64,000 nt of DNA from assembly GCA_963745035.1 (NCBI GenBank), contig CAVUVW010000021.1, positions 256,001 to 320,000 of the forward strand, given 5' to 3'. Below, one piece after another: positions 6,982 through 51,589 of this stretch (position 1 is the stretch's first letter; each line of letters starts with the position of its first letter). The translations under genes and the position numbers were made by a program. The stretch comes from an uncultured delta proteobacterium. Its GTDB lineage: Bacteria; Desulfobacterota; Binatia; UBA9968. A model generated the notes under the pieces. It saw only the letters and a list, made by a program, of their open reading frames with translations. It was not told where the DNA came from and made no database searches.

Positions 6982-8305
6982 TTACTTGAGCTTCACGTCC
7001 GCTTCGTCGAAGGCTTCGAGCCCGGCGATCACGTCCTTGAGGAACCGCACCGCGTCGGCGCCGTCCAGAACGCGATGATCGTAGGCGAGGCAGAGCGGCA
7101 GGATCGTTCGAATGGCGATTTTCCCGTCGATCGCGACCGGCTTCGCTTGACCTTGGCCGACGCCCAGGATGGCCACTTGGGGCGCATAAATGATCGGCGT
7201 GAAGTGGCTGCCGCCGATGCTGCCTTGGTTGGAAATCGTGAACGTGCCGCCTTGGAGCTCTTCGATGGCAATTTTACGTTGGCGGGTTTTCTCGGTGAGC
7301 GCGTGCAGCTCTTCGGAAAGCTGCAAAAGATTTTTCTGATCGACGTCGCGCAACACCGGCACGATCAGTCCGCCTTCGGTGTCGACGGCGACGCCGATGT
7401 GGCAGTAGTCTTTGTAGATGATCTCCAGACGTCGCTTCGTCCATGCTCGCATTGGCGCGCGGATGTTTTTTGAGCGCGCGCCCGAGAACCAGCAGCAGAA
7501 ATGCGGTGAGCGTGAGACGCGCGCCTTTTTTTTCGTAAGCTGGCCGCGTGCTTCTTGCGCAGCGCCAGCAGGGCGGTGATATCGGCGTCGGCGAATTGAT
7601 TGATCTTGGGAATCGTCGTCCACGACTCCACCATGCGCCGGCTCACGGTGCGCCGGAGCGGCGACATCTTTTCGCGCCGCACCGGTCCCCATTTGCTGAA
7701 ATCGATCGCTTCGGTGAGCGGCTGCGGCAGGACGCCGCTGCAGGTTGCGCCGCCGCGCCCGGAGCTGGGCCTGGCCGGCAATTTCTTGCAGTCGCTGAAT
7801 GTACGCGCGCACGTCGGCGAGATTGATTCGGCCGCCGGCCTCGCTGCCGCGGACTGCGCGTAAGATCGATGCCGAGCTCGCGCGCGATTTTGCGCATCGA
7901 CGGCGGAGCCGGAGGCGGCGCGCCGCTCTTGGATTCGTAGCGATAATCGTTCGGCGCTCTTACCGGCGCGGCTCGGCGCTGCGGCGAGGAGCTCGAGGCT
8001 TGGCGTGCCGGCGTTGGCTCTCGGGTGCGCTCGCCGCGGCTGAGTGTTTCGCCGCAGTGCGCCGCCGCGCCGCCGGCTTTCGATGCGAGATCAGCACTTG
8101 GCCGACGCTGACCTCCATGCCCTTGCTTGACATGAATCTTCGTGACGACGCCGGCGCTCGGCGCCGGAATCGAGCCCACCGCCTTCTGGGTTTCGAGCTC
8201 CATGATCGGCTGGTCTTTTTTGACTTCCTGGCCTTCGGCGACCAGAATATTGACGACCGTGCCGCCCTCTACACCTTCAGCGAGCTGGGGAAGTTTGACG
8301 TCCAT
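6982..8305 (-). CDS. aceF: Dihydrolipoamide acetyltransferase (E2), frameshifted
   Basis: Lipoyl domain MELETQKAV, E3-binding PSMRKIARELGIDL, catalytic AYDHRVLDG, in different frames. Confidence 0.88.
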
Positions 8306-8335
8306 GAAGAGAATGCGCTGCTGTCTATGCGTGAT

Positions 8336-11064
8336 TTAGAGATAGTGGGGAAAGGCTTTTTCCGGATCGATGGCGAGCTTGTTGATGGCTTCTTCGACGG
8401 TTTGCGCGGGCAAAGAGCCTTTTTGATAGAGCGCATAGAGAGTCGCCAGAGCCGGTGATTTCGGCGTCGACTTCGAAGAACCGCCGCAGGTTTGCCCGGG
8501 TGTCGCTGCGGCCGAAGCCGTCCGTGCCCAAGGCTCATCAGGCCGCCCGGCACCCACGGCGCGATCTGATCGGGCACCATTTTCATGTAATCGGAAACCG
8601 CAACGAACGGACCTTCTTCGTCTTGCAGCACGGACTCGAAATAAGATTTTTTCGGCGGCGCCGTCGGATGAAGCATGTTCCAGCGTTTGGTTCGCAGCGC
8701 GTCGCCGCGCAGCAGCTTGTAGCTGGTCGCGCTCCAGACGTCGGCGGAGACATCGAACTGTTCGGCGAGAATTTCCTGTGCGCGCAAGGCTTCGCGCAAC
8801 AACGGGCCGCTGCCGAAAATATGCGCTTTGAATTTTTTCCGTTGCGCGGCCGGCTTGAGCTTGTAAAGGCCTTTGAGGATGCCCTCTTCGGCGCCTGCGG
8901 GCATCTCCGGCATCGGATAGCTCTCGTTGTAGAGCGTCAGATAATAAAAATATTCCTCGCCTTCTGCATACAAGCGCCGCAGGCCGTCTTTGATAATGAC
9001 GGCGATTTCATAGGCGAAGGCCGGGTCGTAGGTGAGCAGGGTGGGGACCGTGCTCGCCAGAAGATGGCTGTGGCCGTCCTGATGCTGCAAGCCTTCGCCG
9101 TTAAGGGTGGTGCGGCCGGCGGTGGCGCCCAGCAGAAATCCCTTGGCTTTGCTGTCGGCCGCCGCCCAGATCAGATCGCCGATGCGCTGGAAGCCGAACA
9201 TCGAATAATAGAAATAGAAGGGAATCAGGTTGAGCCCGAGGTTGGCGTAGGCCGTGCCGGCGGCGATGAAACGACGACATCGCGCCGGCCTCGGTAATGC
9301 CTTCTTCGAGAATCTGCCCGTCTTTGGCTTCGTTATAGTAGAGCAAGCGTCTCGCGATCGACCGGCTCGTAGAGCTGGCCTTTGGGCGAATAGATGCCGA
9401 TCTGGCGAAACAGCGAGTCCATGCCGAAAGTTCTCGCTTCATCGGGGATGATCGGCACGATGCGCTTGCCGATTTCCTCGTGGCGCAGCAGCTGTGATAA
9501 AAGGCGCACCGCGGCCCCGGTGGTCGAGAGCGACGTGCTCGCCCGAGCCTTTGATCGACTCGGCGTATTCGGCTGCTCTCGGGAACTTTGAGCGGCTTTG
9601 GCGCGGACCTTTCGCTCCGGAATGAAGCCGCCCAGCTGCTTGCGCCGCTGCGAGCAGGTACTGGGTCTCCGGGCTGTCGAGCGGCGGCCGATAAAAGGGC
9701 GTCTCGACGACTTCTTCATCGGGCAGCGGAATGTCGAAGCGGCTGCGAAACTCGCGCAGCTCCCGCTCGTTGAGCTTTTTCTGCTGGTGCGTGATGTTTC
9801 GGCCTTCGCCGGCTTCGCCCAAGCCATAGCCCTTGACGGTCTTGGCGAGAATCACCGTGGGCGCGCCTTTGTGTTCGACCGCGGCTTGTAGGCGGCGTAA
9901 ACTTTTTTCGGATCGTGGCCGCCGCGCAGCAGCTTGCGAATCTGGTCATCGGTCAGATGATTGACCATCTCCAAAAGCTCGGGATATTTGCCGAAAAAGT
10001 GTTTGCGCGTGTAGCTGCCGGGCTCGACCGAATATTTCTGATACTCGCCGTCGACCGCTTCTTCCATGCGCTTGAGCAGCAGGCCTTTTTCGTCGGCGGC
10101 CAGAAGCGGGTCCCAATCGGAGCCCCAGATCACTTTGATGACGTTCCATCCGGCGCCGCGGAAAAGCGCTTCGAGCTCCTGGATGATCTTGCCGTTGCCG
10201 CGCACCGGGCCGTCCAGACGCTGCAGATTGCAGTTGACGACCCAGATCAGGTTGTCGAGATTCTCCCGCGCCGCGACCGTGAGCGCCCCGGACGACTCGG
10301 GCTCGTCCATTTCGCCGTCGCCGGCGAAAGCACCAGACGCGCGGCTCCTCGCGGGCGAGCAGGCCGCGGCTTTTGAGATAGCGCATGAAACGCGCCTGAT
10401 AGATCGACATGATCGGCGCCAGGCCCATGGAAACCGTCGGGAATTGCCAGAAATCCGGCATCAAATACGGATGCGGATAGGAGGAAACGCCGCCGACCGG
10501 CGAAAGCTCCTGGCGAAAGTGATGCAGCTTGGGCGCGTTGATGCGCCACTCGACGTAGGCGCGCGAGTAGATGCCCGGCGACGCGTGGCCTTGAAAGTAG
10601 ACCATGTCGGCGTAATGATCGCCGTCGCCGCCGCGAAAAAAATGGTTGAAGCCGACTTCGTAGAGCGTCGCGGACGACGCGTAAGTCGAAATATGACCGC
10701 CGATGTCGGGATGAATGCGATTGGCCTTGACGACCATCGCCATGGCGTTCCAGCGGATGTAGCTTTTGATGCGCCGCTCGATCTCGCGATTGCCGGGATA
10801 GGGCGGCTCTTTCTCGGGCGGGATGGTGTTGATGTACGGCGTGCTCACCGTCTGCGGAACCTTGAGACCGGAGCCGCGCAGACGATTGTTCAGCTCTTCG
10901 AGAAGCAGGGAGGCCTGTTCGGACTGCTCATTTCTGAGAATGTGCTCGAGCAGATGCTCGAGGGACGCCACCCATTTGTGGCGGTCATTTTTATTTCCCT
11001 TGCCGTTTTCGCCGTCGCCGACCAGAGCAGCTCCGTCACCGGTAAGTTTTTTGTCTGTTTCCAT
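8336..11064 (-). CDS. aceE: Pyruvate dehydrogenase E1, homodimeric AceE type, frameshifted
   Basis: [57 protein letters not shown] and GTDGFGRSD over at least six ORF pieces. Confidence 0.92.
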
Positions 11065-11122
11065 CGCGCCTCGCTCAATTTTAACAGACAACAAAAAAGA
11101 ATTAAAATCAACTGACAACAAA
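11046..11122. promoter_or_regulatory. AT-rich divergent aceE/lplA control region with repeated AACWGACAA boxes
   Basis: aacagacaacaaa (11083-11095) and aactgacaacaaa (11110-11122), plus inverted ttgtctgtt at about 11051-11059. Confidence 0.45.
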
Positions 11123-11835
11123 TGAAATTTCTCGACTTGACCTTCGCGGAGCCGGCGGCCAATCTCGCCTGCGACGAGGCGCTGCTGGAAACGATGGAAG
11201 CGGACGCGCCGGGCGCGGAATGCCTGCGCGTTTGGGAGGCGAAAAATCATTTTGTCGTGCTTGGCCACTCCAATCGGATCGCCGCTCACGTCGACACTGC
11301 CGCGTGCAAGGAACGCGCAATACCGATTCTGCGCCGCGTCAGCGGCGGCGGCACGGTCGTGCAAGGTCCCGGCTGTCTCAATTACGCGCTGATTCTCGGA
11401 AACGCCGCGCGCCGCAACATCGGCGACACTTTCCGGCACGTCCTGCAGCGCCACCGCCGCGTCGTCGAAGCATTGTCGGGCAAGGCGGCGCGCTTCGACG
11501 GCATCAGCGATCTGACCGTCGATGGCTTAAAATTTTCCGGCAACGCGCAGTACCGGAAGGCGCGTTGCGCGCTCGTGCATGGGACTTTCTTGCTGAATTT
11601 CGATTTGCCGGCGCTCGAAAGGCTGCTGCCGGTGCCGGCCAAGCAGCCGGCCTATCGCGGCAATCGGCCCCATCGCATGTTCGTCACCAATTTGCATCTG
11701 GACTCGAAGGAGCTTGTCGATGCGTTGAAAGGCGCCTGGAGCGCCGACGAAGTCTTTACAGAGGTTCCCACCGCGCGGATCGAACAACTGACGCGCGAGC
11801 GCTACGGCCAGATCTGGTGGTCGGAAAAGTTTTAG
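11122..11835 (+). CDS. lplA: Lipoate-protein ligase A family
   Basis: NLACDEALL, RRVSGGGTV, KFSGNAQ, HGTFLL; divergent from the PDH operon. Confidence 0.88.
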   Translation: MKFLDLTFAEPAANLACDEALLETMEADAPGAECLRVWEAKNHFVVLGHSNRIAAHVDTAACKERAIPILRRVSGGGTVVQGPGCLNYALILGNAARRNIGDTFRHVLQRHRRVVEALSGKAARFDGISDLTVDGLKFSGNAQYRKARCALVHGTFLLNFDLPALERLLPVPAKQPAYRGNRPHRMFVTNLHLDSKELVDALKGAWSADEVFTEVPTARIEQLTRERYGQIWWSEKF

Positions 11836-11849
11836 GACGCTGCGGGTTA

Positions 11850-12023
11850 AAGCATGCGCTTTTACCCGTTGTGAGAGAGCGGCAATCGCTGGCGAATGCA
11901 TCGCTGGCGAATGCTTTGGCGGAGTACACGGACAGGCTCGGCCTTGAGCGCCGTCTTAAAGTGAAAACGATTTCCGACCTGCTCAACGGCGACAGCCACC
12001 CGCAGGCCAAGACTCGCCAGTGA
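11850..12023 (+). pseudogene. 3' remnant of putative terminase small subunit-like gene (copy A)
   Basis: ALLPVVRERQSLAN...AEYTDRLGLERRLKVKTISDLL matches the C-terminus of 12896..13423; internal tcgctggcgaatgc duplication. Confidence 0.8.
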
Positions 12024-12226
12024 CCGTATTAACGGAGAAAACGCATCCTGGGCAGGTTGGGAGGGGAGCTGTAAGAAACGTTTACTTGTGGCAAAACGGA
12101 AGTCTTTCCAAGTAGATTGTCCCAGGCGGGCAACTCATATACACGGAGCCGCAGGCATCGCAAACCCAGGCTTGCTTACGCAGGAGCACAAGCGAGCCGT
12201 TAGCGGCTACCAGCGGGGATTCTGAA

Positions 12227-12392
12227 CGGTGCGCTAATCCATTATGTGCTGAAACGATCACGATCAAGCCGCAGCGCGGCAAACGCTATGCTCCGACCGC
12301 TGCCGCATGACGGCTACGCGCTCAAGCGGGCCAGGGCGTTGCTCAGGCGCCTTGGCATTATCCGTTTCCATACGCTGCTGGACGAATTATGA
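12227..12392 (+). pseudogene. Frameshifted copy of the small Zn-finger gene (copy A)
   Basis: tgcgctaatcc...gacggctacgcgctcaagcgggcc...atccgtttccatacgctgctggacgaattatga aligns with 13529..13699. Confidence 0.75.
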
Positions 12393-12403
12393 AAACCGCG
12401 AAT

Positions 12404-12601
12404 TTATCGTCGAATCAGCAACCAAAGAAGATGCAGAAATCCACGTCCCCAAATGCTGTTTGGACTTACCCAATAGCGGGAGTAGCAACCACGGCAGCGA
12501 AACAGGTGTGCATTTATGAGGGTGCTCAACAACCGTTCCCAGCGGCTGCGATGAGAACGCTGGATGTCATGACTGCCGCAGTGCGGGCACGAATCCAACA
12601 C
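12404..12601 (-). CDS. Small zinc-ribbon protein (cargo)
   Basis: CPHCGSHDIQRSHR...FRCRGC, two CxxC pairs; GTG start. Confidence 0.55.
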   Translation of the reverse strand: MLDSCPHCGSHDIQRSHRSRWERLLSTLINAHLFRCRGCYSRYWVSPNSIWGRGFLHLLWLLIRR

Positions 12602-12636
12602 AGTAACCGCCGACTCTATACGGGATCGAAATGCCC

Positions 12637-12740
12637 ATGACCCAAAATTGATTCACCCTATCATTTTCCTCTACAGGCTGGTCAAGAAAAACGAGTTTGG
12701 GCCGACCCTTCACGCTCATGGATCATTAACGCGAAGTCTC
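12637..12740 (+). pseudogene. Terminase large subunit N-terminal remnant (copy A)
   Basis: atgacccaaaattgattcaccc...ctggtcaagaaaacgag...cccttcacgctcatggatca matches 14681 onward, with indels and stops. Confidence 0.75.
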
Positions 12741-12836
12741 GCGCCTGGCCACCCCCGAAATGCCGGATCGGGCCAAGTTGAAGAAATCGCGAGTGGCGAA
12801 AATACTTGAAAGCTAAGGATCTCTTAAAGGGAAAGT

Positions 12837-12886
12837 TGGTGGCGGTGGTAGGAGTCGAACCTGCGACGCCGCGGATATGAGCCGCG
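12837..12886 (-). repeat. Duplicated 3' 50 bp of tRNA-Met (att core)
   Basis: tggtggcggtggtaggagtcgaacctgcgacgccgcggatatgagccgcg vs 16278-16327, one mismatch. Confidence 0.95.
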
Positions 12887-12895
12887 AGGACTGGG

Positions 12896-13423
12896 ATGAA
12901 ACCTACTGAAAACACGGTAGGTTTTTCCTCTGGGGGCGATTCTCGGGGGCGATTAGAGCTAGAAAACCCGTCAAAACTCTCTGCTGGAGCACCGAAGGGC
13001 AACCACAATCGCACAAAGCATGGCGTCCATGCTGTAACGAGCTTGGTGAAGAAGCTCGGCACCGATCGCGCGTTAGACAAACGCACGGCGATGGGGAAGG
13101 CCTTAGAGCGCTGGCGACAGGAACTGATCAATGATCTTGGCGGAGAAGACAACATCAGCGCCCAGCAGCGCGCCATCATCGACCTCGCCGTTAAAAACAA
13201 GCTCATCCTCGACACAATTGACCGCTGGATATTCCAGCAGCCTTCGCTGATCGATAAGCGCAAGCGGGCTCTTCTCCCGGTTGTGAGAGAGCGGCAATCG
13301 CTGGCCAACGGCTTGGCAGAGTACATGGACCGGCTGGGCCTTGAGCGCCGGCATCCTGTGAAAAGCATCTCCGACCTGCTCCACGGCGATACCGAGCAGC
13401 CCCAGACCGAGACCCGCCAATGA
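12896..13423 (+). CDS. Putative terminase small subunit-like protein
   Basis: GAPKGNHNRTKHG motif, typical of phage TerS N-termini; helical body; upstream of terL remnants; start uncertain. Confidence 0.55.
   Translation: MKPTENTVGFSSGGDSRGRLELENPSKLSAGAPKGNHNRTKHGVHAVTSLVKKLGTDRALDKRTAMGKALERWRQELINDLGGEDNISAQQRAIIDLAVKNKLILDTIDRWIFQQPSLIDKRKRALLPVVRERQSLANGLAEYMDRLGLERRHPVKSISDLLHGDTEQPQTETRQ
12932..12954 (+). repeat. Tandem GGGGGCGATT 10-mers (candidate integrase arm-type sites); third copy at 16165-16174
   Basis: Identical 10-mer at 12932, 12945 and 16165, each 45-110 bp inside an att core. Confidence 0.6.
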
Positions 13424-13489
13424 CCGCGTTAACGACTAGCAGCGCTGAAACTGAGGCCATTGACCCAAGCCGAGCCCACAGCATGCGCC

Positions 13490-13699
13490 ATGACTGCGTT
13501 AACGCAGTTAAACGGGCATGCTCAGAGCTGCGCTAATCCGTTCTGTAAGGCACCGGTCAACATCAAGTCACCGCGCGGCAAGCATGGGCGCTACTGCTCC
13601 GATCACTGCCGGATGGACGGCTACGCTTTGAAGCGGGCAAAGGCGCTACTCAACCGGGTTGGCGTGATCCGCTTTCACACACTGATGGACGAGGTATGA
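13490..13699 (+). CDS. Small Cys-rich (Zn-finger) phage-like protein
   Basis: CANPFC...RYCSDHCR; conserved in degraded copy A. Confidence 0.65.
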   Translation: MTALTQLNGHAQSCANPFCKAPVNIKSPRGKHGRYCSDHCRMDGYALKRAKALLNRVGVIRFHTLMDEV

Positions 13700-13700
13700 A

Positions 13701-13778
13701 TCACGCCTGATCTATCAACCACACTATGACGAGCACTAGGACGACTACAACGATAACAACGAGCCCGAACTCGGACAT
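13701..13778 (-). CDS. 25-aa single-helix hydrophobic peptide (not in ORF track)
   Basis: Hand translation MSEFGLVVIVVVVLVLVIVWLIDQA*; purine-rich GGGAACAGG and TACGAT upstream. Confidence 0.45.
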   Translation of the reverse strand: MSEFGLVVIVVVVLVLVIVWLIDQA

Positions 13779-13829
13779 ACCTGTTCCCTATCGTATCTTT
13801 TGGCCGACGTGCAGCAAGGGCTTTTGACC

Positions 13830-13860
13830 ATGACCAAAATCATTCACCCGATCACGTTCA
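13830..13860 (+). pseudogene. Very short terL start remnant (copy B)
   Basis: atgaccaaaatcattcacccgatcacgttc = MTKIIHPITF, matching MTKLIHPLTF at 14681. Confidence 0.65.
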
Positions 13861-14145
13861 CGAGATCGGCAATTCTCCGACCTCTCGCAGTGTAATACGT
13901 GGTTGCATAGCAATCTGGATGAGTACTCTGCGGTGGAGAGATTGGTCAATGGTCAGGGTGATCCTGTACTCCTCGCGTTCGCGGTTAAGGAGATCAAGGA
14001 CAATAGCGCGAGGGCCCACCGACCGCCCGTCTGTGACAGCGTCGTCGAGGCATGCAGGTGGCGGCATCTTTACTCGCCCGCTTATATCGACTTTCCCGAG
14101 CGTCACGATCGGCGGCCAACGGGTCTCGCATTCTCTGACCCGCAT
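13858..14145 (-). CDS. Hypothetical 95-aa protein, divergent member of the WPP...EIGDL family
   Basis: MRVRE...RWPP...ITLREVGELPIS mirrors MQLRD...SWPP...LSIQEIGDLDVS of 14315..14626. Confidence 0.5.
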   Translation of the reverse strand: MRVRECETRWPPIVTLGKVDISGRVKMPPPACLDDAVTDGRSVGPRAIVLDLLNREREEYRITLTIDQSLHRRVLIQIAMQPRITLREVGELPIS

Positions 14146-14314
14146 ACTTCACGGCTACCAAATGAGAAGAACGAGGCTAGGCCCCTTGCAAAATTAAATC
14201 TCGGTAATGGTAACGAAGTTGGCCTTGCCGGCGCTGTTCACGGCAAGATCAAGACGAGCGCAGAGCAAAAAGGCATTCCGCTATGAGCAAGCACCAAGCG
14301 GGAAAGCGAGCTGA

Positions 14315-14626
14315 CTAGAGCAGGTGCGACACATCCAAATCGCCGATTTCTTGGATGGACAGGCCGACTTGTGCCTGCAAGACAGCATAAATCTGGTAGC
14401 AGAACTGGGGATCATCGAACTGCATCGAACCCATGTAGCGACGGCCTTGATGTTCGATGAACAGAAAAATCTTGTTATCGAATAGTTCGTGCATCATCGC
14501 ACGTTCGAGGTTGCCAATTTCGCCGGTCGGCCTGTCGTTAGCGTCTTGGCGCGTCGTTGTCCAGACTGGTGGCCAACTTGGAAACCCACTCTTGCGGGTC
14601 ATTAGGGGATGGTCGCGGAGTTGCAC
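14315..14626 (-). CDS. Hypothetical 103-aa protein (WPP...EIGDL family)
   Basis: Gapless homologue of 25485..25796 (about 69/103 identical by hand count), which supports a real gene. Confidence 0.85.
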   Translation of the reverse strand: MQLRDHPLMTRKSGFPSWPPVWTTTRQDANDRPTGEIGNLERAMMHELFDNKIFLFIEHQGRRYMGSMQFDDPQFCYQIYAVLQAQVGLSIQEIGDLDVSHLL

Positions 14627-14634
14627 GGCCCACT

Positions 14635-14663
14635 AAGATCGCAAAGCTCTCCTAACGTGTCAA
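14635..14663 (-). promoter_or_regulatory. Sigma70-like promoter for 14315..14626
   Basis: Minus strand reads TTGACA-17 nt-GATCTT, then 8 nt to GTG. Confidence 0.5.
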
Positions 14664-14680
14664 CCCGAAATCCTATTTCC

Positions 14681-15092
14681 ATGACCAAACTGATTCACCC
14701 GCTGACATTTATCGACAAGCTGGTCAAGAAAAACGAGCTGGGCCAACCCTTCACGCTCATGGATCACCAGCGGGAGATTCTCCGTCTCGCCTTTGCCTTC
14801 ATAAAGACGGCCGGCTGCCGTGGGACACGATTCTTTATTCCTGCGTCAAGAAGTCGGGAAGACGACGATGTCGACCAAGGAGACAGAGCGGTTTTTCCGG
14901 CTCACGATGGAGCATCAGAAGCGAAAGATCGATGCGTGCGTGGCGCTGAGCTTTGCTATCCTGGGAGCGATCCGCAATGGGCGACCGATGGACCCCGACA
15001 GAGCGGGCCTAGAACCATTCAAGCCGGTCTGGGGCAAGTTCGACGCGCGTCAACCTACATTCCCTGGCTACGGTGTACGGCGGATGCGGTGA
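14681..15092 (+). pseudogene. Internally deleted, frameshifted terminase large subunit
   Basis: GQPFTLMDHQREILRLAF, DGRLPWDTILYSCVKKS(G)KTT (Walker-A-like across frameshifts), joined to C-terminal KRKIDACVALSFA. Confidence 0.7.
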
Positions 15093-15181
15093 AGCTTACG
15101 CCGAAGTGGAGCGCCGGCAGAAAAATGGGACAATTTCCAGGCTTGACATCCTTTGGCGCATTGGCTTAAAAATCGTTCCCT

Positions 15182-16078
15182 ATGGTTCAGGGTGCTTGGA
15201 TAGCCAAGGCATTGACCCAGCAAGCCCTCTCCCACCTGCCGGGCGGCAACCAAATCAACTACTTTCTCCAACGCCATGTCGCCCGCTCGCTGCCGCACAG
15301 CGATGCAACGTTCCTCCACCATTGCGAATTTGCCGGGCGCTACGTTTCGGCGCTGCGCAACCACACCGACACGCCGGTTGATGACGCGCATTGTCTGGAG
15401 TTCGGCGCGGGTTGGGACTGCGCGGTCGCGCTGATCCAGCGCGCGCTCAGCGTGCCCGATCAAATCTTGGTCGACATCAACGCGAAGCTTCACTACAAGC
15501 TGATAAATGAGACGCTTGCCCAGGCGCGGCGGCTTGCCGATAAGGTCGCCAAGCGCGCGCCGGGCGCCGATGTGGACAGGCTGCCTTTTACCGTCAACTG
15601 CGAGAGCGAGTTGAACGCAATGGGGATCAAGTATTGGGTCGGCGATTTGATGGAACTGGATTGGCCGCGCGGGTTTGACATGATTCACAGCACGTCGGTG
15701 CTCGAACATATTCCGGCCGACGATCTTCTCTCGCTGGTCCAGCATTGCCATGGCATGCTGCGCCCCGGCGGCTTGTTCTGCGCCGCCATCGACACCGCCG
15801 ATCATTACTCGCGCTATGACCGCTCGATTTCGCACGTCAATTTTTTGCGCTACTCGCCGTCGATTTGGCCGCTGTTCTCGCCGCCACTCCACTATCAAAA
15901 CCGCTTGCGCGTGAGTGATCACTTGAAGATCATCAAGGAAGCTGGATTCAAGATCCTGGAAGCCACGCGGAACCGCATCAGAAAGCACCCGAACATTCGC
16001 CCGCATCACAGCTTTCAGAATTACGCCATCGACGACTTGCTTTGCGGTGGCGTGTTCGTGGTCGCGCAAAAAAAGTAA
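15182..16078 (+). CDS. Class I SAM-dependent methyltransferase (island cargo)
   Basis: CLEFGAGW, FDMIHSTSVLEHI, LRPGG, IDTADHY, YQNRLR; TTGACA at 15143 upstream. Confidence 0.8.
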   Translation: MVQGAWIAKALTQQALSHLPGGNQINYFLQRHVARSLPHSDATFLHHCEFAGRYVSALRNHTDTPVDDAHCLEFGAGWDCAVALIQRALSVPDQILVDINAKLHYKLINETLAQARRLADKVAKRAPGADVDRLPFTVNCESELNAMGIKYWVGDLMELDWPRGFDMIHSTSVLEHIPADDLLSLVQHCHGMLRPGGLFCAAIDTADHYSRYDRSISHVNFLRYSPSIWPLFSPPLHYQNRLRVSDHLKIIKEAGFKILEATRNRIRKHPNIRPHHSFQNYAIDDLLCGGVFVVAQKK

Positions 16079-16277
16079 ACCGCTCGCCCCGGTGGTGCCG
16101 CTGGTCTTCACCAGTCACGCCTACGGGTGTGTGTTGCTGTGCGTGAGACGCAGTTGAAAATCTTGGGGGCGATTTAATGACCGCAAAAGGCCCCGAAATG
16201 CCGGATCTGGCCAAGTTGGAGAAAATGCTCGAGTTGGCGAAAATGCTTGAAAGCTATGGATTTCTCATAGGGAAAGT

Positions 16278-16354
16278 TGGTGGCGGTGGTAGGAGTCGAA
16301 CCTACGACGCCGCGGATATGAGCCGCGTGCTCTGACCAACTGAGCTACACCGCC
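16278..16354 (-). tRNA. tRNA-Met (CAT), probably elongator
   Basis: GGCGGTGTAGCTCAGTTGGTCAGAGCACGCGGCTCATATCCGCGGCGTCGTAGGTTCGACTCCTACCACCGCCACCA, 77 nt with encoded CCA; Ile2 not formally excluded. Confidence 0.93.
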
Positions 16355-16390: not shown

Positions 16391-17119
16391 TCAAGCGATA
16401 AAAGCGGCGGAAGATCTCCACCTATGCTCTGCCGAAGTTCGATTGACACGCTTTTTTCCTCGGCCGATCTGGAAAAGGACTTTCTCATCTACTTCGAGGC
16501 AAGTCAACATATTGCCGTAAACCACGCCCGTGTCGAGTCCGATTTTGTACGGCAGATCATAGAACACGGTCACCTGCGGCGTATGCCCGAACAAGATCGT
16601 ATAGGGTAGTTTATGCGAGCGATAGATGAAGGCGTTCCTGATCCAGAATAGATCTTCATCGCCTTGCTCGGCCAAGGGCTTTTCCGGTTGGATTCCCGCG
16701 TGAACGCATAAATAGGGATCCGTAATATGGTACGAACGGAGCGCCTGAAAGAAACCGAGATGATCGGCCGGCATCCTGGCCAAGGCGTGCCCGGGAATCA
16801 TTTCGCCGGGTTTGATACCGTAGCTCGCCAAAGTCGCTTTGCCGCCATTGGCGACGAACATGTCGCCGTGCCGACCGCCGAGGCCGAGATAGGACAGAAA
16901 CATGTCTTCGTGATTTCCTTTGAGAAACACGAACTCAACGCTCTCATGAGCTTGTTGGAGCGCAAGCAAGTGCGAGATCACCGCGCGAGAATCCGGACCG
17001 CGGTCGATGTAATCGCCGAGAAATATTACGAGATCGCCCTGCGCAAGCGGCAGTGATTCCAGCAGGCGACTCACCTCCGCGGCGCAGCCATGAATATCCC
17101 CGATCACGTAGCGGCCCAT
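16391..17119 (-). CDS. Ser/Thr protein phosphatase family metallophosphoesterase
   Basis: GDIHG, GDYIDRGP, GNHE, HAG, GHTP, DTG motifs. Confidence 0.9.
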   Translation of the reverse strand: MGRYVIGDIHGCAAEVSRLLESLPLAQGDLVIFLGDYIDRGPDSRAVISHLLALQQAHESVEFVFLKGNHEDMFLSYLGLGGRHGDMFVANGGKATLASYGIKPGEMIPGHALARMPADHLGFFQALRSYHITDPYLCVHAGIQPEKPLAEQGDEDLFWIRNAFIYRSHKLPYTILFGHTPQVTVFYDLPYKIGLDTGVVYGNMLTCLEVDEKVLFQIGRGKKRVNRTSAEHRWRSSAAFIA

Positions 17120-50644: not shown

Positions 50645-51589
50645 ATGGCAAGGAAGAAGATTGCATTGATCGGCGCGGGCAACATCGGCGGTTCGATGGC
50701 CCATCTGGCGCTCTTGAAAGGGCTTGGGGACGTGGTGCTGTTCGACGTTGTCGAAGGACTGCCGCAGGGCAAAGCGCTCGATCTGTCCCACGCGGGACCG
50801 GTGGAAGGCTTCGACGGCAACGTGACCGGCACCAACAAGTACGAGGATATCGAGGGAGCCGACGTTTGTATCGTCACCGCCGGCATCGCGCGCAAGCCGG
50901 GCATGAGCCGCGATGATTTGCTCGCCACCAACGCCAAGATTTTGACTTCGGTGGCGGACGGCGTCAAAAAACATGCGCCCGACTCGTTCGTGATCGTCAT
51001 CACCAATCCGCTCGACGCGATGGTGACGTTGATGCAGCGCGCTTTGGGCTTTCCGAAGAACCGCGTCGTCGGCCAATCGGGCATCTTGGATTCTTCGCGC
51101 TATCGTTCGTTCATCGCCAAAGAGCTGAACGTTTCGGTAAAAAGCGTCCAAGCGATGGTTCTCGGCGGGCACGGCGACGACATGGTGCCGGTGCGCAGCT
51201 CCTGTATCGTCGGCGGCGTTGCGGTGGAGAAGCTGATTTCGTCCAAGCGTCTCGATGAGATCGAAGCGCGCGTGCGAAACGCGGGCGGCGAGGTTGTGGC
51301 GCTCTTGAAGACCGGCTCGGCCTACTTCTCTCCGGCCTCGGCGGCGATTCAAATGACCGAGGCGTTCCTGTTCGACAAAAAGGAAATTCTCCCCTGCGCT
51401 GCGCTGCTCGAAGGCGAGTACGGCGTCAGCGGCTACTACTTCTGCGTGCCGGTGCAGATCGGCGCCGGCGGGGTTGAAAAAATCATCGACATCCATCTCA
51501 ACGCCGCCGACAAGAAGGCCTTCGATGAGTCCCTCAGCCATGTTAAAGATATCGTGCAGGCGATGAACCGGGTCCTGGGAGTTTCCTAG
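50645..51589 (+). CDS. mdh: Malate dehydrogenase (LDH-like)
   Basis: [27 protein letters not shown]. Confidence 0.95.

Follow-up and report, generated by a model that had tools for sequence, protein, structure and literature searches.

Remnants of phage-like islands, probably stacked by repeated integration, at a tRNA-Met gene of an uncultured Binatia bacterium

The window analysed was a 64,000-nucleotide stretch from an uncultured delta proteobacterium (Desulfobacterota; Binatia; UBA9968; assembly GCA_963745035.1, contig CAVUVW010000021.1, positions 256,001 to 320,000). The locus described here, at 11850-16277 of this window, lies between a lipoate-protein ligase gene and a tRNA-Met gene and carries pieces of a terminase module, in which a terS-like gene and a small Cys4 zinc-finger gene (Znf) precede the gene of the large terminase subunit (terL). 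The host flank on the left is lplA (LplA/B-like; 11122..11835, plus strand; PF21948, E 2.4e-37). Unit A begins at the left deletion edge of the island with a C-terminal fragment of a terS-like gene (11850..12023, plus strand; about residues 123-175), followed by a Znf copy with tblastn matches in two reading frames (12214..12392, plus strand). Its slot, the interval before terL, holds a 65-aa Zn-ribbon open reading frame (ORF), the truncated N-terminus of a Zn-ribbon and VanZ gene (12404..12601, minus strand), and terL stub 1 of about 33 codons, with in-frame stops, ends at a deletion junction (12637..12735, plus strand). An internal att copy follows (12753..12886, minus strand), made up of an element arm of about 84 nt (12753-12836) and the 3' 50 nt or so of tRNA-Met (12837-12886).

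Unit B comprises an open, full-length terS-like gene of 175 aa (12896..13423, plus strand), a Cys4 Znf gene (13420..13699, plus strand; listed as an ORF at 13460-13699), 128 nt holding an antisense 25-aa ORF unsupported as a gene (13700..13827, no strand assigned) and an echo of the terL start of about 11 codons (stub 2; 13828..13860, plus strand). Slot blocks 1 and 2, the 'orf127' region, are probably non-coding or a decayed remnant (13865..14314, no strand assigned). They are followed by a 103-aa WPP gene of an element-associated accessory family (14315..14626, minus strand), by a terL remnant with the N-terminal 62 or so residues through the Walker A GKT and a C-terminal piece (stub 3; 14681..15092, plus strand), and by an S-adenosylmethionine-dependent methyltransferase gene carried as island cargo (15182..16078, plus strand; PF13489, E 4.6e-9). 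A second element arm (16191..16277, no strand assigned), the repeat partner of 12753-12836, adjoins the regenerated, intact tRNA-Met (CAT), which is the integration target (16278..16354, minus strand; ARAGORN; Rfam RF00005, 68.9 bits) and was the only match in the Rfam search. A metallophosphoesterase gene forms the right host flank (16391..17119, minus strand; PF00149, E 1.6e-17). Further left in the window, the gene of pyruvate dehydrogenase E1 (8269-11062, minus strand) is broken into several ORFs and frames, and its PDH_E1_M domain is split between 9333-9827 and 8269-9201, by indel errors or as a real pseudogene.

A preliminary description of the locus, made from the sequence alone, had seen a repeated terS-Znf-terL module with a swappable antisense cargo slot before each terL start, and had proposed a self-comparison. 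Performed over 11.7-16.5 kb, this returned four repeat pairs: the 3' part of terS (11850-12034 and 13262-13434; 73.9% nucleotide identity), Znf (12214-12393 and 13513-13700; 72.9%), the terL start (12635-12725 and 14679-14766; 83.5% over 91 nt) and the att copies (12753-12886 and 16191-16327; 90.5% over 137 nt). The repeat in the last pair consists of the 3' 50 nt or so of tRNA-Met and the 87 nt next to the tRNA (16191-16277); a third copy of this combination was not found in the genome. One of the two copies lies between unit A and unit B. The att duplication and the deletion junctions can be read directly from the window, and the internal tRNA-Met fragment with its arm is the signature of stacked site-specific integrations that were followed by deletions.

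To define the insertion, the lplA-like protein (11122-11835) was searched in 31 genomes of the genus, and 16 of the returned loci were scanned for tRNAs; L218, from an unpublished genome, was set aside, as were L224 and L227, which are short or reach a contig end. None of the conclusions draws on the unpublished genome G005. In five of the 16 loci (L222, L225, L230, L235 and L236) tRNA-Met(CAT) lies 46-109 nt past the end of lplA and convergent to it, as in the window. One further locus has the tRNA 1.3 kb from lplA, and the other ten have none within the 1.5-kb flank. The distance in the window is 4.44 kb, and the inserted DNA comprises all of 11850-16277. In another genome of the genus (G041) the contig with the lplA orthologue also has a terL-like match, about 9 kb further downstream (G041:C111:5363-6079 and 15200-15721), and the site may also be occupied there.

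A fuller element was found at the same lplA/tRNA-Met site in another genome of the genus (G018:C42). It measures 15.5 kb and is bounded by 50-nt tRNA-Met repeats. The order is metallophosphoesterase (an orthologue of the window's flanking gene), tRNA-Met, integrase (PF00589), HTH_3 regulator, transposase remnants, DUF3631, CHC2 primase, ATP-dependent ligase (two ORFs), a WPP-like ORF, terL (two ORFs), Znf, terS, a 50-nt tRNA-Met 3' copy (94%) and lplA. The scars in the window predict just this layout, in which the integrase end adjoins the regenerated tRNA and the terS end the displaced fragment. The element of G003:C32 is bounded by repeats of the 46-nt 3' end of tRNA-Arg, 12.7 kb apart, and carries terS, Znf, terL, a split ligase, Prim-Pol with AAA_25, HTH_17 and a split integrase. 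G024:C410 has terL, helicase-like and HTH_17 genes and an integrase beside host genes. No capsid, portal or tail match was obtained with Pfam or PHROGs in these three elements, and no copy with a full virion module was found in this genome or the 30 other genus genomes searched.

By tblastn and genome search, terS, Znf and terL-start modules were located elsewhere in this genome on contigs C13, C26 (several), C6, C20 (two), C12 and C14, giving at least eight further relic sites, and all of these copies appear truncated or interrupted. A phrog_458 'protease' is kept in the C13 and C26 copies, the latter with a Bbp16-like gene (PF21190) after terL as well; an IS110-family transposase (PF02371, PF01548) interrupts the C26 terL (L010:9106-10317; G000 C26:73106-74317). 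At 48-60 kb of C20 (L013, 48001-60000) there is a paralogous two-unit array with 77-86% nucleotide identity to the window. It contains a Znf end, Zn-ribbon, a terL stub, Znf, blocks 1 and 2, a terL N-terminus, a methyltransferase and two WPP genes, and the position of WPP differs from that in the window. The C20 array is inverted and lies beside a tRNA-Ser(CGA) whose 3' end faces away from it.

The three terL starts at 12637, 13830 and 14681 in the preliminary description were borne out. In the window the pattern CCATGACC-N(4-8)-ATTCACCC matched three times, at 12635, 13828 and 14679 exactly, and in each of 100 shuffles not at all; genome-wide there were six matches, and none for the reversed control. 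The copies are unequal, being a stub with stops, an echo of about 33 nt and a terL without approximately residues 63-420, and no Znf gene precedes the third. The translation of stub 1, which adjoins the element arm, has two in-frame stops. A short-read contig of another study (record 11 of run X2) matches 12527-12859 with 0 differences, and the defects of stub 1 are therefore not assembly noise. Stub 2 resembles terL starts over 31-35 nt only, with 84-92% identity to those at 14679 and on C20, C26, C12 and C6.

In stub 3 the 62 or so N-terminal TerL residues are spread over three frames. The first reads MTKLIHPL...LAFAF, the next KDGRLPWDTILYSCVKKS, and the third GKTT, followed by a stretch that aligns with the TerL consensus around residue 441, at KKIDAIVALAMA; residues 63-420 or thereabouts were missing by tblastn too. 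Short-read contigs show an extra G at 14800 and at 14855, both together only in run X2. Run X1 has only the first, run X6 has each in a minority of its depth, and in run X7 the second is partly present and the first site shows a 3-nt gap. These variants would place the terL remnant in one frame. In one frame or not, stub 3 has neither the ATPase core nor the nuclease domain, and none of the three terL copies in the window has complete ATPase and nuclease domains.

Similarity of an intact relative supports the identification as TerL. The 689-aa protein of G003:C32 matched PHROG 9 (phrog_9), terminase large subunit, with E 5.5e-41, and many close homologues are named 'phage terminase large subunit-like protein' in public sources; Pfam matches were borderline only. 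The TerL proteins of the island family are 672-690 aa long (L044:11001-13070, G003:C32; P0001-P0016), and their C-terminus is about 200 residues longer than that of the relatives of about 480-530 aa that form most matches. This extension had no family match, and a scan of viral contigs found no TerL relative.

The terS fragment of unit A corresponds to the last 57 codons of the full copy (E 4.6e-14, 79% identity). Paralogues of the unit B gene occur at five other sites in the genome, three of the six copies have an open frame, and mismatches of the unit B gene to the C26 and C13 copies are biased to third codon positions. The 175-aa product had no Pfam, PHROG, NCBIfam or PDB sequence match. 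Its model is helical (mean pLDDT 64.9), and the best fold match (VIA, 48,161 chains) was the HK97 small terminase (Z 7.8, rmsd 3.6, 89 residues), at a score tied with unrelated helical proteins; Foldseek gave no match at E <= 0.001. TerS is therefore an assignment by position only, the gene lying where TerS is expected, upstream of terL. The small Znf protein is of the Cys4 type; C-x4-C...C-x3-C and other columns are invariant in five homologues, and the unit B copy shows a third-position mismatch bias. It likely starts at the ATG at 13420, overlapping the terS stop; in one intact relative Znf begins on the terS stop.

The opposite-strand ORFs of the preliminary description are present in the window, and the first two slots start directly after the Znf stop codon. 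At eight junctions in this genome the 3' end of Znf and the start of terL are both preserved. Six of them hold an antisense Zn-ribbon(/VanZ) gene in gaps of 237-636 nt, with VanZ kept in only the 636-nt gap, and two (window unit B and C20) hold blocks 1 and 2. The Zn-ribbon gene reported for the first slot does exist as an ORF, with 78-82% amino acid identity to four other copies in the genome, but is only the N-terminal piece of a 200-aa gene that is intact at C26:75564-76166 (VanZ PF04892, 4.5e-15; NF037970, 3.6e-26). Weak Zn-ribbon matches and no VanZ domain were found in the 65-aa ORF itself. An 83-aa sense ORF spanning the unit A slot and overlapping its neighbours by ATGA on either side was rejected, as it is open in the window copy alone and the other five copies have stops. 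The 25-aa hydrophobic peptide was also discarded as a gene; it had no significant similarity in the genome or genus and no homologue anywhere searched, and the 128 nt at 13700-13827 gave only chance-level matches of 14-18 nt in the genome and none in the 30 genus genomes.

Blocks 1 and 2 have 83.5% and 86.5% nucleotide identity to C20 55689-55345, where the order Znf-block 1-block 2-terL occurs without the echo. 'orf127' was not accepted as a gene, since its mismatches to the C20 homologue ([17,16,9] by codon position) are fewest at the third position and three frames are equally open. On C6 and C13 block 2 abuts the stop codon of an antisense Zn-ribbon gene; in the window it abuts that of antisense WPP, and homology picks up again there at the CCATG of terL. 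WPP therefore holds the place of the Zn-ribbon gene. The copies of block 2 (window 14220-14297, C6:9213-9283, C13:981301-981351, C20:55345-55418) encode, when read in the sense direction, a peptide that ends in ...KIKARAEEKGI(P/S)L, always beside an antisense cargo stop. This peptide presumably resembles the start of a ribbon-helix-helix protein cut short.

In other genomes of the genus, Znf and terL overlap by 4 nt without a slot at two of three junctions (G003:C32 and G018:C42). The third (G018:C4) has a gap of 534 nt with a 169-aa sense ORF inside that had no family match. In metagenome contigs 44 loci matched Znf, and 12 of these had a terL match downstream, after gaps of 140-2041 nt. The 884-nt gap of L173 holds an antisense hexapeptide acetyltransferase (PF00132, 2.3e-13). 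Six near-identical loci (L182-L187; gaps 517-547 nt), counted as one lineage, hold an antisense 66-aa two-helix membrane ORF (2-TM), followed in all except L182 by an antisense WPP homologue. The terL match of L183-L186 is a 99-aa stub ORF (read in L185), and L182 and L187 begin 30 nt further on. No family was found in the gaps of L188 (251 nt) and L189 (403 nt). The antisense ORF of L189, considered as WPP, was undetected by the WPP profile and not counted. The terL matches of L175, L188 and L194 are weak or truncated. Among 79 loci of more distant TerL relatives only three have Znf, and these are the genus loci. In about 30 of 34 tabulated distant loci a same-strand ORF ends no more than about 60 nt from the extrapolated terL start, so that a tight operon is the common state. 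The slot was thus seen empty and with four cargo types identified by family match or conservation, and in this family the Znf-terL junction is a real variable site where accessory genes insert, in the manner of morons and mostly as antisense cargo.

WPP is a real family, with more than 40 tblastn matches in the genome and a strong third-position mismatch bias in five of five comparisons. Its consensus of about 100 aa is M.LRDHPLM..WPP.W...GEIG.L...Y.G...FDD..FC...IG.LDLS.TL. The AlphaFold model (pLDDT 90.9) predicts a beta-sheet and a C-terminal helix, and Foldseek returned only weak PH/PTB-like rows (best E 0.018, TM 0.44). No Pfam, NCBIfam or PHROG match and no usable ESM Atlas match were obtained for WPP, and PDB sequence searches with the WPP profile and with the terS profile gave nothing. 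WPP genes often form tandem clusters, and members also lie inside or beside terminase islands; further sites in this genome are C14:1012294-1015333, C19:285499-286645, C26:99471-100202, and C20 at 50823-51470 and 81101-85904. The methyltransferase gene lies within the insertion, as judged against empty sites. It has a 74%-identical paralogue in the C20 relic array and shows a third-position mismatch bias.

These results are best explained if 11850-16277 is a graveyard of at least two, and possibly three, related phage-like integrative islands stacked at tRNA-Met, a reading to which we assign a probability of roughly 0.78. Each island would have inserted by site-specific recombination at the 3' end of one tRNA-Met gene, and each newer island would have pushed the earlier one toward lplA. 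In the proposed family layout the integrase end would adjoin the regenerated tRNA, with a translationally coupled terS-Cys4 Znf-terL operon at the far end, beside the displaced tRNA fragment. Later deletions would have taken the integrase and replication genes and left very little of terL; the survivors would be the fragment-proximal ends, terS-Znf-(slot)-terL 5' stub, and cargo (WPP, methyltransferase). From the tRNA leftwards, element 2 would consist of the arm (16277-16191), the methyltransferase, terL without about residues 63-420, WPP, the slot blocks, the terL-start echo, Znf2 and the full terS, followed by the tRNA fragment (12886-12837). Element 1 would consist of the arm (12836-12753), a deletion junction, terL stub 1, the Zn-ribbon ORF, Znf1 and the terS end, followed by lplA. 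At 13861-13864, where the echo gives way to block 1, the most likely reading is that sequence was deleted between two elements of the stack. We infer the order of events, the number of integrations, an exchange of slot cargo by recombination among related elements, and the present immobility of the locus, which on the stacking model is an ordinary product of repeated tRNA-gene integration and subsequent decay.

That the repeats are an assembly chimera of strain variants, as the preliminary description had allowed for, is highly improbable. The stretch, or most of its sampled words, was present in runs of eight studies, and the junctions were checked with short-read contigs from four runs of four studies. 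Five of six checked junctions were bridged by independent contigs: lplA/terS fragment by three runs (X2 record 9, X7 record 26 and X6 record 19), stub 1/arm/tRNA fragment by the zero-difference contig X2 record 11, tRNA fragment/terS by X1 record 1, echo/block 1 by X6 record 23 and X7 record 30, which run from 13829 into the next block, and the N- and C-terminal terL pieces by X1 record 5 (14762-14978). A chimera could account for the small indels relative to short-read contigs, and some contigs join paralogous copies. Contig joints connecting Znf1 with Znf2, or stub 1 with stub 3, show short sides or additional letters and were read as contigs of paralogous copies. The assembly is real.

The preliminary description had suggested that the conserved terS/Znf and terL flanks recombine in situ, duplicating the module and swapping cassettes, and that such array growth left only terL stubs. 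Block 2 and the terL start do flank either Zn-ribbon (C6, C13) or WPP (window) at the same position, and the 33-nt or so echo at 13828 would also suit such exchange. However, units A and B are separated by the tRNA-Met fragment and arm without a flank-to-flank junction, stub 1 ends at the arm, the stubs in general end at deletion junctions, and the unit genes are just 73-74% identical. Moreover, the whole block is an insertion at a site that is empty in relatives and that in G018 holds a single bounded 15.5-kb element, so that growth in situ seems quite improbable. A single integration, duplicated in tandem by unequal crossing-over between att repeats and then diverged and decayed in place, is likewise improbable. 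The direct repeats of arm and tRNA fragment could support the exchange, but the arms are 90.5% identical and terS and Znf only 73-74%, the slots differ, and C20 has both module types side by side, 77-86% identical to those in the window, as two lineages predict. The difference between arms and unit genes argues for two related lineages over a recent duplication, and two lineages with a common att and integrase-binding sequence would fit the identities better. It is also unlikely that the host keeps the terS-Znf(-cargo) ends, for example to hinder the packaging of incoming phages or as a source of WPP, methyltransferase or Zn-ribbon protein. The unit B terS is fully open, as are half of the six genomic copies, third-position bias is seen in WPP, Znf, terS and the methyltransferase, and near-identical sequence occurs in runs of eight studies. 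Yet selection of this kind may have acted while the elements were still mobile, the surviving Zn-ribbon fragments diverge without codon-position bias, and no promoter signal exceeds chance.

Several observations weigh against the stacking of islands as proposed here. Site-specific integration is what we infer from scars and relatives, but no integrase or excisionase remains in the window; a tyrosine integrase domain was found in none of the eight island ORFs scanned (12 proteins in that scan). The displaced tRNA fragment expected beside lplA is missing, the oldest fragment presumably having been lost in the deletion that cut terS at 11850. The junction between units B and C could be an insertion instead of a deletion between stacked elements, and therefore 'at least two' integrations are proposed. 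The family layout is not uniform, as the G003:C32 element is oppositely oriented to its tRNA-Arg. Short-read contigs break at the repeated terL start, and none from another sample spans the array (X6 record 22 stops at 13858, and X2 record 13 enters stub 3 by only 28 nt). The window assembly shows small indels relative to these contigs, and some of its frameshifts may be assembly errors. With regard to the slot, Zn-ribbon mismatches by codon position ([69,66,67]; five copies, 10 pairs) show no bias. A consensus scan gave three promoter-like and nine terminator-like sites (shuffle means 1.9 and 4.8), and no such site flanks the cargo genes or stands above the shuffled controls. Slot content within this genome is mostly one fixed gene, an outcome that the preliminary description had itself named as counting against its reading. 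The hotspot of the preliminary description, and the slot census it called for, hold for the variable content across relatives but not within this genome.

The locus can be compared with known systems. In the Islander report (PMC4383910), the ends of islands are marked by a regenerated target and a displaced fragment, and the Prochlorococcus tycheposon report (10.1101/2020.12.28.424599) describes successive integrations, remnants and scattered partial tRNAs. As in the tRNA/tmRNA island arrays described there, the window has a regenerated tRNA at one end, a partial tRNA copy inside and degenerate remnants, and newer elements would have displaced older ones inward; unlike them, it has no integrase, and packaging-gene ends survive instead of integrase fragments. 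The window repeat is also longer than a usual att core and includes the element arm of about 84-87 nt.

Morons, the accessory-gene hotspots of temperate phages, are a concept of Hendrix and colleagues. The slot is like them in its fixed position between conserved late genes, in its unrelated and often antisense passengers and in being empty in some relatives. It differs in that the insertion splits the translationally coupled Znf-terL pair and has no flanking promoter or terminator above chance.

The SatelliteFinder definitions (PMC10085698) set cfPICI apart from PICI by terL. A cfPICI is expected to combine int, regulator, primase, terS and terL with genes for the capsid, a head-tail adaptor/connector and a protease, and to lack tail and holin genes. 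Set beside these definitions, the intact relatives resemble PICI/cfPICI satellites in their size of 12.7-15.5 kb, in lying at tRNA genes and in carrying integrase, regulator, primase/helicase and small- and large-terminase-like genes, but differ from cfPICI in that no capsid-module match (Pfam, PHROGs) was obtained in G003:C32, G024:C410 or G018:C42. The window itself lacks int, primase and capsid genes. The elements were filed as neither cfPICI nor PICI, and could equally be deletion derivatives of prophages. Like defective prophages, the window has truncated terminase genes, in-frame stops and a lost integrase, and two other copies in the genome keep head-related genes beside terL; unlike them, no complete phage ancestor was found among this genome and the 30 genus genomes searched.

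The locus is a worked example of an apparent programmed cassette array that is best explained by stacked tRNA integrations and deletion; relatives with an empty site, and one with a fuller element in the same place, act as its controls. The analysis also yielded a genus-wide family of small tRNA-integrating islands with a complete terminase and no detected capsid genes, and a packaging-operon junction that gathers antisense passengers (VanZ-like, WPP, acetyltransferase, small membrane protein). It is possible, if rather doubtful, that the relics descend from undescribed capsid-less, terminase-complete satellites of soil bacteria that package themselves in helper capsids. Such satellites would be tRNA-integrating islands of 12-16 kb with integrase, regulator, primase/helicase and coupled TerS-Cys4 zinc-finger-TerL genes, including a 689-aa TerL with a C-terminal extension, and would have no virion genes and a full terminase of their own. 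The Znf/terL junction would then be a dedicated antisense cargo slot, and terL 5' stubs would persist in relics as carriers of cargo promoters. If the islands are satellites, the known satellite repertoire would be extended to poorly studied soil lineages.

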